NCBI RefSeq assembly: GCF_051860665.1
Contig: NZ_JBHYDM010000017.1
Span: 11,501-75,500, forward strand
DNA length: 64,000 nt
Origin: Falsiroseomonas sp.
Lineage (GTDB): Bacteria; Pseudomonadota; Alphaproteobacteria; Acetobacterales; Acetobacteraceae
Reading direction: 5' to 3'
Made by a program: the position numbers and the translations under genes. Below are positions 4,683 to 15,340 of this stretch, piece after piece (the first letter of the stretch is position 1; each line of letters begins with the position of its first letter). A model generated the notes under the pieces. The model had not been told where the DNA came from. It did no database searches and saw only the letters and a program-made list of their open reading frames with translations.

Positions 4683-5679
<997 letters not shown>

Positions 5680-5683
<4 letters not shown>

Positions 5684-5961
5684 GCGAACTGGCGGAGATC
5701 CGGGCCCAGCGGGCGGAGGTGGAGGCGCTGCTCGCCTTCCGGCACGCGGCGCCGGGGCCGGAGAAGGCGCTTGCCTGGTGGCGGCTGCACCGGGCGCGGG
5801 GGGCGCGGCCGGGCACGGCCAGGCTGCCACCCCTGCCCGCCCCGCCGCCCGGCAGCTTCTCCGCCCTACAGTCGCTGGCGCTGCGACTGGGCTTGCTCCG
5901 CATCGAGTCGGCCAGGCCGCCGCGCCATATCCGCCGGGCGATGCGGCCGCGGCAGGGCTGA
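5680..5961 (+). CDS. Hypothetical protein (93 aa)
   Basis: GTG start overlaps hemB stop (GTGA); fills gap to convergent gene; no family recognised. Confidence 0.55.
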
Positions 5962-5964
5962 CGC

Positions 5965-6951
5965 CTACTCCACCTGCATCCGCAGCTCGCGCACCAGCGG
6001 GCGCACGGCGGCGATCTGCTCGTGCACCGCGGCGCCGAATTCGGCCGCGCTATTGCCGCCCGGTTCCGCGCCCAGCTCCGCGATGCGCGAGGCCAGCTGC
6101 GGATAGCGGGCCGCGGCGGCGATCTCCGCATTCAGCCGCGCCAGCACGGGCTCCGGCGTCCGCGCCGGGGCAAAGAAGCCGTTCCAGCCCAGCATCTCGG
6201 CGCTGGCAAAACCCTGTTCGCGCACCGTGGGCACATCCGGCAGGGCGCGCGCCCGGCTCGCCGCCAGGGTGGCGATGGGCTTCAGCGCGCCGCTGCGCAC
6301 ATGCTGCAGGGAGGAGGAGAGCTGGTCCCCGCCAAAGGCGATGCGGCCGGCCAGCATCTCCTGCACCAGGGGCGCGGCGCCGCGGAAGGGCACGTGCTCC
6401 ATCTGGAAGCCGCCGTCGCGCTTCACCACCTCCCCGATCAGATTCATCGTGCTGCCGGGGCCGGTCGAGCCATAGAAGGGCGGCGTGGGCTGCGCCTTCG
6501 CCCAGGCGACGAACTCCGCCAGGTTGCGCGCCGGCACCTGCGCGCCCACCAGCAGCAGCATCGGCACATTGGCGCCCAGGCTGATGGGGGCGAAGTCGCG
6601 CTCCAGCACATGCGGCGCGCGGCCGACGAATTCCAGCGCGGCGGTGGTGGTGGAGAAGGTGAGGTTGTGGAACAGCAGGGTCTGCCCATCCGGCGCCGCC
6701 TTGGCCACCACATCCGCGCCGATGGAGCCGCCGCCGCCGCCGCGATTCTCCACCACCACGGAAACGCCCAGCGTCTCCGTCAGCCGCTGCGCATAGAGCC
6801 GCGCCAGGATGTCCGTGGTGCCGCCCGCCGGGAAGGGCACGATGATCCGGACCGGGCCGCTGGGCTGCCAGGCCGGGGCCTGGCCCTGGGCCAGGCTGGC
6901 GGCCACAAAGGGCGATCCAAGGGCGGCCAGCATCAGGTTTCGGCGCTGCAT
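5965..6951 (-). CDS. Bug/TctC tripartite tricarboxylate transporter substrate-binding protein
   Basis: MQRRNL Tat-like leader, IIVPFPAGGTTDILAR, VENRGGGGGSIG, HVPFRG, LPDVPT; GGAGG SD before ATG 6951. Confidence 0.92.
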   Translation of the reverse strand: MQRRNLMLAALGSPFVAASLAQGQAPAWQPSGPVRIIVPFPAGGTTDILARLYAQRLTETLGVSVVVENRGGGGGSIGADVVAKAAPDGQTLLFHNLTFSTTTAALEFVGRAPHVLERDFAPISLGANVPMLLLVGAQVPARNLAEFVAWAKAQPTPPFYGSTGPGSTMNLIGEVVKRDGGFQMEHVPFRGAAPLVQEMLAGRIAFGGDQLSSSLQHVRSGALKPIATLAASRARALPDVPTVREQGFASAEMLGWNGFFAPARTPEPVLARLNAEIAAAARYPQLASRIAELGAEPGGNSAAEFGAAVHEQIAAVRPLVRELRMQVE

Positions 6952-10785: not shown

Positions 10786-11175
10786 CTACCGCGTGCAATA
10801 GGGGTGAAAGGACGTGCCCCGCATCGTGACGGTGGTGGCCACCACCGGGAAGAGCGAAATGTGGCAGGCATGGACGATATTGAAGCCCGTGTCGGAATAG
10901 GCGGAGACACGGACGCCGACGGCACCGGCCGGTGCCGTGACGCAATGCCGCTGCCCCAGCAGGAAGTTGCTGCGCGTGATCAGCTTGATGACGGGCAGCC
11001 CGGAGCGCTGAAAGGCATCGATATCGATGCTGCCGACATAGCCGCCGCGGTGATCGACACAGATCTCGATCGGGCGATCGCTGGGCTGCGCCAGAGCCGG
11101 GCCGCTGGCGGCAAGCAGGGCCGCCAGCGCGGCGATGCGGCCGGCGCCGCGCCAGGAGGATGCGTCGCCTGGCAT
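10786..11175 (-). CDS. Secreted 4-Cys protein, CDC domain-4-like paralog D (start uncertain; 11232 possible)
   Basis: Signal peptide ending ALA-Q; ICVDHRGGYV...RHCVTAPAGA...DTGF..HACHI...TVTMRGTSFHPYCTR; paralogous to three upstream ORFs. Confidence 0.8.
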   Translation of the reverse strand: MPGDASSWRGAGRIAALAALLAASGPALAQPSDRPIEICVDHRGGYVGSIDIDAFQRSGLPVIKLITRSNFLLGQRHCVTAPAGAVGVRVSAYSDTGFNIVHACHISLFPVVATTVTMRGTSFHPYCTR

Positions 11176-11382: not shown

Positions 11383-11769
11383 TCAGCGGCTGCAATGGGC
11401 CTGCAGCGAGGTCCCGCCCATGGTGATGGTGGTGGGCACCACGGGCCGGATGGTCAGCTGGCAGGCCTCCCGCCCGCCGACGACGGAGAGCACCACCCGC
11501 ACCTCCCAGGTGCCGGCCGGCGCCGTGCCGCATCGTTGCTGCCCCACGGGCACGGAACTGTCGCTGAGGATGGCCTGGGTGTGCAGCCCGCCCCCTTCGA
11601 TATAGTAGCGCGCAGTGATCAGCATATTGGCGACATAGGCGCCGCGCTGCTGGATGCAGATCCGCACCGGCGTGCCGTTCACCTCCTGCGCCACAGCCGG
11701 CGGCGCGGAGGCGGCCAGGGGCGCGAGCAAGGCAGGCAGCATCAGGCAGCGCATCAGGTGGCGGGGCAT
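11383..11769 (-). CDS. Secreted 4-Cys protein, CDC domain-4-like paralog C
   Basis: SD AGGAG; signal AVA-Q; ICIQQRGAYVA...QRCGTAPAG...EACQLTI...TITMGGTSLQAHCSR. Confidence 0.85.
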   Translation of the reverse strand: MPRHLMRCLMLPALLAPLAASAPPAVAQEVNGTPVRICIQQRGAYVANMLITARYYIEGGGLHTQAILSDSSVPVGQQRCGTAPAGTWEVRVVLSVVGGREACQLTIRPVVPTTITMGGTSLQAHCSR

Positions 11770-11811: not shown

Positions 11812-12189
11812 CTATTGCGTGCAGTGATGCTGCAGCGTGGTGCCATGCGCGGTGACGGTGATGGCGCGCACCGGCTGCACCCGCACCCGGCAGGCCTCCA
11901 CGAAGTCGGACCCGTTGAAGACCCGCACCAGGATCTCGACCTGGGTGGTGCCCTCCGGCGCATTCACGCAGAGCCCCTGCATCACCGGGATGCCCGCCTG
12001 CAGCCCGAGGGTGCGCGCCTCCGGCCGCCCCGAGGCGCCCGGCACCATGCCTCGGATCTGCGTGCTGATGACGAAGCCGCCGCGGTTCTGGACGCAGAGG
12101 CGATGCTCCTGCGCCGCAGCCTCGCCTGGCAGGGCGCCGGCCAGCAGCAGGGCCAGGGCCGCGGGGAGGACGGCAGGGTGACGCGGCAT
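11812..12189 (-). CDS. Secreted 4-Cys protein, CDC domain-4-like paralog B
   Basis: SD GAGGAG; signal AAA-Q; LCVQNRGGFV...GLCVNAPEG...EACRVRV...TVTAHGTTLQHHCTQ. Confidence 0.85.
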   Translation of the reverse strand: MPRHPAVLPAALALLLAGALPGEAAAQEHRLCVQNRGGFVISTQIRGMVPGASGRPEARTLGLQAGIPVMQGLCVNAPEGTTQVEILVRVFNGSDFVEACRVRVQPVRAITVTAHGTTLQHHCTQ

Positions 12190-12208
12190 GAAGCTCTCCT
12201 CTCGCATC

Positions 12209-12607
12209 CTATTGGGTGCAGTGGCTGTTGAAGGTGGTGCCGCCGACGGTGACGGTGGCCGTGCGGACCGGGTCGATCGTCACCTCGCAGGCCTGGCGCC
12301 AGCCGAGGCCGGTATGCAGCTGGACCTTGACCACCACGCGATCGGTGGCATCGGGCATGGTGGCGCAAAGCTCCTGCAGCGCCGGCAGGCTGGCGTTGCT
12401 GGCGACCAGCCGCAGCGTCCGCGCGCTGGTCGCCCCCGTCGGCACCGGCTGGCGGGCATGGATCTCGGCGGCGATGACGAAGGCGCCGCGATTGGCGACG
12501 CAGATGCGCGCCGCGCCCGCCTGCGCCAGGCCTTCGGCCGGCAGTGCGGTGGCCAGCAGCAGCGCCAAGGCGGGACAGGCGGCGAGGCCTGCAAGAGGGC
12601 GAGCCAT
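12209..12607 (-). CDS. Secreted 4-Cys protein, CDC domain-4-like paralog A
   Basis: SD AAGGAGG; signal GLA-Q; ICVANRGAFV...ELCATMPDA...QLHTGLGWRQACEV...TVTVGGTTFNSHCTQ. Confidence 0.85.
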   Translation of the reverse strand: MARPLAGLAACPALALLLATALPAEGLAQAGAARICVANRGAFVIAAEIHARQPVPTGATSARTLRLVASNASLPALQELCATMPDATDRVVVKVQLHTGLGWRQACEVTIDPVRTATVTVGGTTFNSHCTQ

Positions 12608-13000
12608 GGAACCTCCTTTGGTAGGCCTCAGCGGGTGCAACTCGGGTGGGCGCCCCGCAGCGCCGCCGGGGCGGGTCATGCGGGGATCCTCCTGAGCGAA
12701 GCAGGAAGGCACGCAGCAATCAGGACAGATACAAAGGCCCGCAAGGCTTCATTGCTCCAAAAAATGCAATCCCCGCCCGGATCTCTGCTCATTCTTGGAA
12801 CACGCCATTGGTTCTTCTGTGCTGGATTTCGGTTACTGCATTAACATCCGGGCCGTTACGGGGAAGCAAGTCCATTCCGATGGGCGCGATAGGCTTTGGC
12901 TGCATCACATGTCTTGCCTTCGGCGCCACGAAACAGCCCGAGCCGGTCGCTCTCCCGGCCCTCCCTTCCCTTCCCCGCCCATCCGGTCCATCTGGCGCCC

Positions 13001-15340
13001 ATGCGCTTCCTCCTCCGCCTCACCGGGCGTCTCCTCCTGCTGGTCGTGCTGCTGGCCGGCCTCGCCATCGCCTTCGCCGCGGCGGTGGTCTTCACCTCCC
13101 TGCCCGATGCGCGGGAGGAGCTGGCGATCCCCAGCCTCTCCGCCCCCGTCGCCATCACGCTGGACGCGCAGGGCATCCCCCGCATCCGGGCGGAGACGGA
13201 GCGCGATGCGGCCGTCGCCATGGGCTACCTGCATGCGCGGGACCGCATGTTCCAGATGGAGGCGATGCGCCGCAGCGCCGCAGGACGGCTGACGGAACTC
13301 GCCGGCCCCTCCGCCCTCAGGCTCGACCGCATGTCCCGCACCCTCGGCCTGCTGCCGCGGGCGGAGGCCGACCTCGCCGCGCTCGATGCCGGCACGCGGG
13401 ACATGCTGGTGGCCTATGCGGAGGGGGTGAATGCGCTGATCGCCGCCCGCGGCCGTCTCGCCGCGCCGGAGTTTCTGGTGATTGGCGAGCCGGAGCCCTG
13501 GCGGCCGGAGCACTCCCTGCTCTGGGGCAAGGTCATGGGCCTGTGGCTGTCCGGCAATTGGCGGCGGGAGCTGGAGCGCGCTGCCCTGGTCGAGGCCCTT
13601 CCGGCGGAGAAGGTCGAGGATCTCTGGCCGCGGGATGGCAGCGCCGGCCGGCCGGATCTCGCGGCCCTGCCCAGCGCGCCCCACCTGGCGCGGGTGCTGC
13701 AGGCGATCCCGGTCTTCGGCGAGGATGCGCCGCTGCCATCCTCCGCCTCCAATGCCTGGGCGGTGGGCGGGCGGCGCAGCGCCAGCGGCGCGCCGCTGCT
13801 GGCGAATGACCCGCATCTCGGCTTCAACGCGCCGATCCTCTGGTACCTGGCGCGCATCGACCTGCCCGATGGCCAGTTCCGGGCCGGCGCCACGGCGCCT
13901 GGCGTGCCGGCGATCGTCATCGGCCGCAACCAGTCCCTCGCCTGGGGCTTCACCACCACCCATTCGGATACGCAGGACGTTTTTGTGGAGCGGCTGGCGG
14001 GGCCGGATGCCTATCTGACGCCGGAGGGGCCCCGGCCCTTCCTGGTGCGGGAGGAACGCATCGCCGTGCGCGGCCAGGCCGAGCCCGAGATCCTGCGGGT
14101 GCGGGAGACGCGGCACGGGCCGGTGATCTCGGACCTCGACGGGCTGGCGGCGGCGGAAGGGCATGTGCTGGCGGTCGCCATGGCAAATCTCCAGCCGGAT
14201 GACACGGCCGCCGCCTCCCTGCTCGCGCTGAACCGCGCCACCTCCATCGCCGAGGCGCGGCAGGCTGCCGCGCTGTTCAGCAGCCCACCGCAGAACCTGA
14301 TGGTGGCGGATGCGGCCGGGCGCATCGCGCAATACCTGGTCGGGCGCACACCGATCCGCGCCAGCGGCGATGGCAGCCTGCCGGCGCGCGGCTGGGACGG
14401 CAGCATGGACTGGACCGGCTTCGTGCCCTTCGACGCCATGGCGCATGTGGAGGACCCGGAAAGCGGCCAGATCGCCAATGCCAATTCCCGCCCGGCACCG
14501 GCCGACCACCCGGTCTTCCTCGGCCGCGACTGGTATGGCGACTGGCGCCTGCGCCGCATCCGGCAATTGCTGGCGGCGCGGCCGCAGCATGACGCGGCGG
14601 GTTTCGCGGCCATGCAGAACGACGTCACCTCGCTTCTGGCGCAGGCGCTGCTGCCGGTGCTGCGCGCCGTGCCGCCGCCGGCCGGCCTGCCCGCCCGCGC
14701 CCATGCCCTGCTGGCGGACTGGAACGGCGAGATGCGCGCCGATCTGCCGCAGCCGCTGATCCACCACGCCTGGCTCGCCCGCTTCCGACAGCTGGCGCTG
14801 CAGGCCGGCGGGGCGCCGGAGGGCACCGCGGGCGGGCCGGAATTCCTGGAACGCCTCCTGCTGGACCCCGCCCGCGGCGCCGCCTGGTGCGGGGCGGAGG
14901 GTTGCGGACCCCTGCTGGCCCGCGCGCTGGGCGAGGCGGTGGCGGAGCTCGAATCCGCTCAGGGCAGCGACCCGGCCGCCTGGCGCTGGGGCGCGGCCCA
15001 TGTGGCGAGCTTCGAGCACCCGCTGCTGCGCTTCGTCCCTGGCCTCGCCCAGCTCACCCGCCTGCAGGCCGGCACCGGCGGCGACAACGAGACGCTGTCC
15101 CGCGGGGGCATGCGCGGCACCGGCACGAATCCCTTCGCCCACCAGCACGGCGCCGGGCTGCGCATGGTGGCGGACCTGGCGGATCCGGAGGGGACGCTGG
15201 CCATCATCGCCACCGGCCAGTCCGGCCATCCGCTTTCCGATAATTTCGCAAGCCTGCTGCAACGTTGGACAAGCGGGGACGTTCTGCGCCTGGGTCGGCA
15301 GCCTGAAAACGAGGCGGGGTCCATCCGACTGACCCGATGA
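13001..15340 (+). CDS. Penicillin acylase family (Ntn-hydrolase) protein
   Basis: N-terminal TM; GIPRIRA, GYLHARDRMFQME, SNAWAV nucleophile, LLANDPHL, WGFTT, NANSRP, GQSGHP. Confidence 0.93.
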   Translation: MRFLLRLTGRLLLLVVLLAGLAIAFAAAVVFTSLPDAREELAIPSLSAPVAITLDAQGIPRIRAETERDAAVAMGYLHARDRMFQMEAMRRSAAGRLTELAGPSALRLDRMSRTLGLLPRAEADLAALDAGTRDMLVAYAEGVNALIAARGRLAAPEFLVIGEPEPWRPEHSLLWGKVMGLWLSGNWRRELERAALVEALPAEKVEDLWPRDGSAGRPDLAALPSAPHLARVLQAIPVFGEDAPLPSSASNAWAVGGRRSASGAPLLANDPHLGFNAPILWYLARIDLPDGQFRAGATAPGVPAIVIGRNQSLAWGFTTTHSDTQDVFVERLAGPDAYLTPEGPRPFLVREERIAVRGQAEPEILRVRETRHGPVISDLDGLAAAEGHVLAVAMANLQPDDTAAASLLALNRATSIAEARQAAALFSSPPQNLMVADAAGRIAQYLVGRTPIRASGDGSLPARGWDGSMDWTGFVPFDAMAHVEDPESGQIANANSRPAPADHPVFLGRDWYGDWRLRRIRQLLAARPQHDAAGFAAMQNDVTSLLAQALLPVLRAVPPPAGLPARAHALLADWNGEMRADLPQPLIHHAWLARFRQLALQAGGAPEGTAGGPEFLERLLLDPARGAAWCGAEGCGPLLARALGEAVAELESAQGSDPAAWRWGAAHVASFEHPLLRFVPGLAQLTRLQAGTGGDNETLSRGGMRGTGTNPFAHQHGAGLRMVADLADPEGTLAIIATGQSGHPLSDNFASLLQRWTSGDVLRLGRQPENEAGSIRLTR

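Follow-up and report, generated by a model that had tools for sequence, protein, structure and literature searches.

A tandem array in Falsiroseomonas encodes small exported proteins predicted to be stand-alone relatives of cytolysin domain 4

Domain 4 (D4) of the cholesterol-dependent cytolysins (CDCs) is the targeting domain with which these toxins find their target membrane. The stretch of DNA studied here, called the window, comprises 64,000 nucleotides of contig NZ_JBHYDM010000017.1 (positions 11,501 to 75,500, forward strand) from a soil Falsiroseomonas-like bacterium, and its minus strand carries four head-to-tail open reading frames (ORFs), paralogs A, B, C, and D, which make up a tandem array. 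Each product has a Sec-type signal peptide with an AxA-like end, followed by a single mature domain of about 100 residues. Judged from sequence comparison and structure modeling, each mature domain is a remote homolog of CDC D4, a membrane-binding beta-sandwich. The explanation that best joins the findings, and that could be considered somewhat better than an even bet, is that the array encodes exported, pore-less binders of the D4 type that diverged in tandem, with the tip at one end of the sandwich as the working surface and the paralogs as tuned variants of one site.

The kinship with D4 is apparent in both modeled structure and sequence. Mature B and mature A were modeled with AlphaFold2 (predicted local distance difference test, pLDDT, 96.6 and 94.0), and a Foldseek search of the PDB returned CDC D4 domains exclusively as top matches (31 for B and 32 for A), with query template-modeling scores (TMq) of 0.65–0.80 and E-values of 1e-6 to 1e-4. 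The isolated pneumolysin D4 (5cr8_A) was matched at TMq 0.80 by B and 0.77 by A (TMt 0.71), and the next-best folds were unrelated sandwiches at TMq 0.58 or less. In an exhaustive hidden Markov model (HMM) search of 1.84 billion proteins, a profile made from the four paralogs only found about 20 small secreted relatives as well as two metagenomic proteins, P0018 and P0020. The P0018 match (E 1.2e-5) places query positions 6–99 on residues 587–677, coinciding with a PF17440 (Thiol_cytolys_C) domain, and the matched segments of P0020 likewise coincide with its PF17440 domains. All five D4-like repeats cut from these two proteins match PF17440 (5/5, best E 8.9e-13), and HHalign joins them over 89–90 columns to the Falsiroseomonas set (97.1% probability, E 5e-11) and to the 22-member family (98.4%, E 8e-15). 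Also, 10 of the 12 best matches of the family profile to PDB sequences are CDC D4 domains (suilysin, pneumolysin D4, listeriolysin O, perfringolysin O, and 6nal), which are individually weak (E 0.26–1.1) but full-length and collinear.

Because the HMM, HHalign, PDB-sequence, and model evidence agree, a chance or convergent likeness to D4 is very unlikely. Such an account would treat the likeness as convergence or a generic effect of beta-sandwiches, with short motifs matched by chance, and it could point to the lack of a direct Pfam match, to direct HMMER E-values above 0.2 for PDB chains, and to the multi-repeat Big_2 proteins among the HMM matches, which are spurious (only short 35–60-residue V/T-rich strands are aligned) and show the profile to respond to generic V-T-V-T strands. 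We give this account next to no weight, however, since it has to face the HHalign match to PF17440-positive repeats (98.4% probability, 90 columns), two independent models whose top matches are CDC D4 only with a clear gap to other folds, and four motifs collinear with CDC loops L2 and L3, the undecapeptide, and loop L1.

These motifs can be placed loop by loop. In HMMER alignments, the family’s “nRGayVa” lies opposite the “HSGAYVA” region of CDCs (L2), “htGfxW” opposite “CTGLAWEWW” of the undecapeptide, and “GTtl” opposite “GTTL” of L1. We take A401 in the HSGAYVA region to be the membrane-inserting L2 residue of CDCs. The T490–L491 recognition pair lies in the GTTL of L1, and H398, Y402, and A404 are conserved CDC residues close to the pocket that L1, L2, and the undecapeptide form (PMC5744101). 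A first-pass annotation of this DNA had read the paralogs as D4 homologs and had equated RG[GA][FY]V with L2, TG[LF]xW with a relic of the undecapeptide, GT[TS][LF] with L1, and a hydrophobic position with L3 (the loop ahead of an invariant Gln), and both the homology and the assignments hold up. Every motif it quoted is present in its place in the four minus-strand ORFs (Table 1), and among the four paralogs it is true that A alone has a Trp after the TG motif. The family consensus at this relic is HTGFxW.

Both models consist of eight strands in up-down order, and the four motif loops are loops 1, 3, 5, and 7 (10–14 RGGFV, 42–45 PVMQ, 66–69 NGSD, and 91–94 TTLQ in B; 11–15 RGAFV, 46–49 PALQ, 70–73 TGLG, and 95–98 TTFN in A). 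In an up-down sandwich, the odd-numbered loops lie at one end, and the termini and even-numbered loops lie at the opposite end. The equivalents of L2, L3, the undecapeptide, and L1 are therefore all predicted to sit together at one end of the sandwich rather than on different faces, the latter being the outcome that the first-pass annotation had named as counting against it. The modeled arrangement is that of CDCs, with the termini directed towards where domain 2 would be.

The earlier claim that the scaffold is fixed and the tips vary, on the other hand, had matters the wrong way round. Averaged over pairs of the four paralogs, identity is 0.50 in the tip loops compared to 0.32 in the strands and 0.36 in the opposite-end loops, and the column entropy across 22 family members is 1.57, 2.26, and 2.46 bits, respectively. 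Between the window and its nearest named relative, Falsiroseomonas tokyonensis K-20, substitutions in the orthologs of B, C, and D number 3/51 in the tips and 45/246 elsewhere (Fisher p = 0.035). By these three sequence measures, the tip loops come out as the most conserved part of the proteins. Among the tip loops, paralog identity is highest for L2 (0.73), with L1 and L3 both at 0.46 and the undecapeptide-equivalent at 0.29, and the most variable region of all is the beta2–beta3 hairpin (0.13–0.22), which is the site of indels. The tip end also appears to be the most interfacially hydrophobic part of the protein, with a Wimley–White interfacial mean of −0.02 kcal/mol per residue compared to +0.25 for the opposite-end loops (22 members). 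The tips are the more hydrophobic of the two in all 22 members (paired Wilcoxon p = 7e-6, with sequences that are not independent of each other), and each tip has from 1 to 5 aromatic residues.

The tips may nonetheless be specific to each paralog, because 9/17 tip columns differ among the B, C, and D lineages yet are identical within each ortholog pair. These nine columns include the G/A and F/Y positions of L2; the T/S, L/F, and Q/H positions of L1; the apex of L3; and the undecapeptide-equivalent loop. A further 5/17 are invariant, so that 14/17 are either invariant or paralog-specific but fixed, and the columns constrained in one way or the other amount to 82% in the tips, 55% in the strands, and 47% in the opposite-end loops. 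The earlier suggestion that each copy may recognize a ligand of its own is compatible with tip residues fixed in this way. In the tree, A, B, and the single-copy protein P0006 of a syntenic genome (L007) form one clade. P0006 is the closest single-copy relative of A and B, and its tip reads RGAFV / IPVMQ / HTGFDI / TTLNN. Compared to P0006, A retains the L2 RGAFV and the HTG[LF] start and has changed in L3 and L1; B retains the L3 IPVMQ and the T-L of L1, and its undecapeptide-equivalent loop is rewritten. The idea that CDC signatures were split among the paralogs thus survives in part, as a modest complementary retention between A and B relative to P0006; a parceling out of separate CDC functions does not follow. 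The complementary retention would fit paralog-specific tuning of a single site.

The Thr-Leu pair of paralog B had been singled out as the cholesterol-recognition motif of CDCs. The exact T-L is found in B and its ortholog, and the position equivalent by alignment is T-F in A, S-L in C, and S-F in D. The pair is no evidence for cholesterol recognition, because GT[TS][LF] is family-wide, the L491S variant still binds cholesterol (PMC5744101), and directed evolution of perfringolysin O has revealed other motifs that are also able to bind it (PMC11416283, PMC9057304).

How might such proteins work? In the explanation that we favor, the tip would be the working surface and would dock each protein onto a hydrophobic or amphipathic ligand, most likely a sterol- or hopanoid-type membrane lipid, with a glycan as the main alternative. 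The paralogs would all share one binding site, tuned differently in each, instead of each carrying a separate piece of the CDC cholesterol-binding apparatus, and they would bind rather than lyse. Domains 1–3 of CDCs (PF01289, MACPF/CDC fold) are absent, as the ORFs of 125–132 residues hold one signal peptide and one domain, and no pore-forming domain or partner gene was found within 10 kb on either side in the window contig or at the syntenic loci. By analogy with CDCs, a sterol-like lipid is the leading candidate ligand. Sterol synthesis is not known for the Acetobacteraceae. Since hopanoid biosynthesis genes are present in every Acetobacteraceae type strain (PMC8776678), both the hopanoids of the bacterium’s own envelope and the sterols of eukaryotic neighbors are candidates. 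A bolder proposal, attractive though improbable in our estimate, is that each paralog reads a different sterol-like lipid of these two kinds with its own fixed tip, which would make the array a set of natural, non-lytic D4 lipid readers.

A glycan or protein ligand is a serious rival. Here, the proteins would still be D4 homologs, with the tip motifs as turn-forming determinants of the fold only and the specificity in the beta2–beta3 hairpin or the face of a sheet, and they could serve as periplasmic inhibitors, adaptors, or lectins. The hairpin is indeed the most variable region and the one with indels, Gly, Thr, and Gln account for most of the invariant tip residues, and sugar-bound pneumolysin D4 structures (4qqq and 4zgh) are among the fold matches. 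In addition, one family member adjoins a CHAP peptidoglycan hydrolase, and D4-like repeats occur fused to ricin-B lectin domains. Against this, the tips are richer in exposed aromatic and aliphatic residues than the opposite end, apex residues that do not form turns (F/Y, L/F, and V/M/L) are fixed between orthologs, and no partner gene is conserved across contexts. Weighing the two sides, we regard this account as the less probable of the two, with a minority chance of being right that deserves attention. Far less probable is a split toxin, in which the paralogs would be targeting subunits for a CDC/MACPF-type subunit encoded elsewhere in the genome. The targeting role of D4 in CDCs and the existence of two-component CDC-like systems with one component as a membrane platform (PMC11169675) lend this analogy some appeal, but the 10 kb on either side of the array in the window contig and the syntenic loci hold no CDC/MACPF gene, and the binding domains of the known CDC-like toxins are unrelated to D4.

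Of course, the binder explanation has its own difficulties, and the following points weigh against it. Neither the four paralogs nor 23 family members have any relevant match when scanned directly against Pfam and NCBIfam (for PF17440, with its gathering threshold of 23 bits, 0/23 members match even at E ≤ 10), and the direct E-values to PDB sequences are only 0.26–1.7. The undecapeptide, which is the most conserved element of CDCs, is here a 4-residue loop and the least conserved of the tip loops (identity 0.29), and the conserved Gly, Thr, and Gln of the tip could serve to form the turns of the fold and not to contact a ligand. The placement of the loops at one end is based on strand topology and the D4 alignment, not on measured distances, and the ortholog statistics come from three gene pairs in two genomes. 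The sequencing runs on record for the locus are DNA only, with no RNA sequencing runs. Outside the Falsiroseomonas group, the genomic context varies and therefore gives no functional clue.

Table 1. Positions of the four paralog genes, their tip motifs, and related features, with the order of genes in the three arrays (window coordinates)
Feature	Position	Strand	Description
Paralog A gene	12209..12607	-	132 residues; signal peptide and mature domain of about 103 residues with 4 Cys; AAAGGAGG; Shine-Dalgarno site before ATG 12607
Paralog B gene	11812..12189	-	125 residues from ATG 12189 (alternative ATG 12207); product identical to database protein P0001
Paralog C gene	11383..11769	-	128 residues; F. 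tokyonensis ortholog at 81% identity
Paralog D gene	10786..11175	-	129 residues from Shine-Dalgarno-led ATG 11175 (longer ORF from 11232); F. tokyonensis ortholog at 86%
A RGAFV	12476..12490	-	L2-equivalent loop (model loop 11-15)
A PALQ (within SLPALQ)	12374..12385	-	L3-equivalent loop (model loop 46-49)
A HTGLGWR	12296..12316	-	undecapeptide relic with one Trp (model loop 70-73, then W74)
A GTTF	12230..12241	-	L1-equivalent loop (model loop 95-98 TTFN)
B RGGFV	12070..12084	-	L2-equivalent loop beta1-beta2 (model loop 10-14); aligned to the CDC HSGAYVA region
B PVMQ (end of GIPVMQ)	11977..11988	-	L3-equivalent loop beta3-beta4 (model loop 42-45); Gln45 invariant among paralogs
B NGSD	11905..11916	-	short loop beta5-beta6 in place of the undecapeptide, without Trp (model loop 66-69); aligned to the CTGLAW region
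B GTTL	11833..11844	-	L1-equivalent loop beta7-beta8 with the Thr-Leu pair (model loop 91-94); aligned to CDC D4 GTTL
C GAYVA	11629..11643	-	L2-equivalent
C GTSL	11404..11415	-	L1-equivalent
D DHRGGYV	11035..11055	-	L2-equivalent
D NFLLGQ	10951..10968	-	L3-equivalent
D DTGF	10882..10893	-	undecapeptide-equivalent
D GTSFHP	10801..10818	-	L1-equivalent; Pro at the position of a Pro conserved in CDCs
Probable 3'-end relic of a fifth copy, ALRGAHPSCTR*	12628..12663	-	out of frame, just upstream of the ribosome-binding site of A
Window array			A-B-C-D
F. tokyonensis array			D'-B-C-D (D' is a second D-like copy)
L007 array			D-like copy, A/B-like copy, C-like copy truncated in the gene call

Paralog C has SVPVGQ as its L3-equivalent and a 3-residue deletion in the undecapeptide-equivalent loop. 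With regard to the Pro of paralog D, P493 is among the conserved residues near the CDC pocket (PMC5744101).

A Shine-Dalgarno site precedes each of the four genes, and its placement sets the choice of start codon for two of them: B most likely starts at ATG 12189 rather than 12207, and D at ATG 11175 rather than 11232. Genes A, B, and C are separated by 17–42 nucleotides, and D follows after about 200. The array is flanked by a divergent penicillin-amidase-family gene on one side and a convergent aldehyde dehydrogenase gene on the other. The former (Ntn hydrolase; 12896–15340, plus strand) adjoins the array in three genomes, and its ratio of nonsynonymous to synonymous substitution rates (dN/dS) versus F. 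tokyonensis is 0.16; no functional link between it and the array was found. In the products, the mature domain begins with Gln in B, C, and D, and four Cys are invariant across the four paralogs (Cys6, Cys48, Cys74, and Cys97 as numbered in mature B), where they probably form two disulfides. A reading of paralog A as a lipoprotein from its “LAAC” was rejected, as that Cys is residue 11 and lies ahead of the real hydrophobic core and the AxA site. The signal peptides also drove PDB matches to cinnamoyl-CoA reductase, FBF-2, and kavalactone reductase, in which only an “ICVxxxGxxVA” N-terminal strand is matched, and these were discarded.

The paralog types share 29–42% pairwise identity, and by sequence the four genes diverged from one ancestor. 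Their dN/dS (window versus F. tokyonensis) is 0.22–0.40, compared to 0.058 for the neighboring aldehyde dehydrogenase and 0.16 for the acylase, as would be expected of genes under purifying but relaxed selection. Relaxed purifying selection of this kind is usual in exported proteins. The dN/dS values, the Shine-Dalgarno sites, and the presence of the same locus in three genomes together argue that these are real genes.

As far as can be judged from the collections searched, the family is rare and found mainly in the Acetobacteraceae. A search of 1.84 billion representatives gave 30 matches at E < 1e-3, of which several are spurious, and word-indexed homolog searches gave few relatives (2, 9, and 1, with the 9 from an index of 5.8 billion clusters). 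F. tokyonensis was the only match in a scan of a genome collection, a metagenome scan with one family alignment gave no match, and no ortholog of paralog A is on record. The named sources are Falsiroseomonas tokyonensis, Falsiroseomonas sp. HC035, Sabulicella rubraurantiaca, and a metagenome-assembled genome (MAG) of the Acetobacteraceae. The more distant members, either single or in a tandem pair, have unrelated neighbors (GH1 and HldE-like genes; a CHAP hydrolase), and no constant partner gene was seen near family members in the loci examined. The tandem pair (a P0013-like copy and P0033, at 5465–5923 and 6001–6396 of L002) sits between an HldE-like gene and a GH1 glycosidase on an 822-kb metagenome contig, and tandem duplication therefore recurs in the family outside Falsiroseomonas. 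In the Acetobacteraceae MAG (L004, 5154–5912 and 6001–6375), a lone family member lies directly downstream of a same-strand gene for a CHAP-domain peptidoglycan hydrolase.

The same acylase–aldehyde dehydrogenase locus is found in three genomes with different contents (Table 1). Comparison of the window with F. tokyonensis indicates that the array has been remodeled, with A only in the former and D' only in the latter. Upstream of A, positions 12696–12888 (minus strand) are 71% identical over 201 nucleotides to positions 5678–5874 of L001, the D'–B spacer of F. tokyonensis; the two genomes therefore share an upstream control region and differ in the gene that follows it. The stretch at 12628–12663 probably remains from a fifth copy that was lost: it is 88% identical over 25 nucleotides to the 3' end of the third family copy of L007, gives a weak tblastn match to the C-terminus of D, and resembles D-like C-termini (..MRGTSFHPYCTR*). 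That L007 copy (6647–6934, plus strand) is C-like; its gene call (P0009) has 67 residues and is overlapped by a 75-residue call on the opposite strand, and its full ORF reads ...HRICVEQRGAYVARV...GTTFHPTCTR*.

A truncated D4 is a standard cholesterol probe, and a natural family of D4-only proteins would mean that the targeting module of CDCs has an evolutionary life apart from pore formation. Here, the module carries a family-specific set of four Cys, which would be stabilizing, and has been multiplied in tandem in hopanoid-producing environmental alphaproteobacteria. Because the family has kept GT[TS][LF] and xGAYV but not the Trp-rich undecapeptide, it also provides a way to tell structural tip features from ligand-specific ones. 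New reagents for binding lipids or glycans could come from it, and in terms of annotation, a set of “hypothetical proteins” currently missed by Pfam is now identified. If the array does prove to be one of lipid readers, its products would be the first lipid-binding D4 proteins known to stand alone in nature, and new lipid probes could be drawn from them. This would also suggest an origin, or a continued existence, of the CDC targeting domain as a lipid-binding module in its own right. The searchable literature yielded nothing on natural stand-alone D4 proteins, PF17440 outside CDCs, or hopanoid binding by D4, and no description of the paralog family itself.

Compared to D4 of the CDCs (PF17440; perfringolysin O, pneumolysin, 5cr8), the paralogs share the eight-strand beta-sandwich of about 100 residues (TM 0.65–0.80) and, in the models, the collinear xGAYVA-like L2, TG[LF]xW, and GTT[LF] motifs at one tip. 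L1 and L2 are well conserved in both, as reported for CDCs (PMC11416283). Unlike CDCs, the paralogs lack domains 1–3 and hence a pore, have four Cys specific to their family, and fall below the Pfam threshold. In place of the 11-residue, Trp-rich undecapeptide ECTGLAWEWWR, they have TG[LF] in a 4-residue loop with at most one Trp (in A). Their host differs as well, being a Gram-negative, hopanoid-producing environmental alphaproteobacterium with the genes in a tandem multi-copy array. On the sequence evidence, the family can be described as a branch of the D4 superfamily that escapes Pfam, consists of D4 only, carries four Cys, and has been amplified in tandem.

D4-like modules outside the CDC architecture are also seen in P0018 (a ricin-B lectin domain and three PF17440 repeats) and P0020 (two repeats), which form a sequence bridge to the paralog family (HHalign 98.4%) with NxGAYVA, HTG[FL]xW, and GTTxxP motifs in common. 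They differ in that their repeats sit inside larger proteins, lack the four-Cys pattern, and are above the Pfam threshold. P0018 (682 residues, from a Logan contig) runs from an N-terminal ricin-B lectin domain through one D4-like repeat and an Ala/Ser/Val-rich hydrophobic low-complexity segment to two more repeats. The engineered D4 cholesterol probes derived from perfringolysin O are soluble and non-lytic and bind membranes through the tip (PMC4810212, PMC5653841), and such an isolated D4 is a working model for the paralogs. The probes, however, are truncations of a toxin with proven cholesterol dependence, whereas the paralogs are natural and far diverged. The two-component CDC-like (CDCL) toxins of Bacteroidota retain domains 1–3 and have a binding domain unrelated to D4 (PMC11169675). 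They too are distant Gram-negative relatives of CDCs, and they do not use cholesterol (PMC11169675, PMC11952106). In this sense, the two groups are mirror images of each other: the CDCLs keep domains 1–3, and the paralog family keeps only D4.

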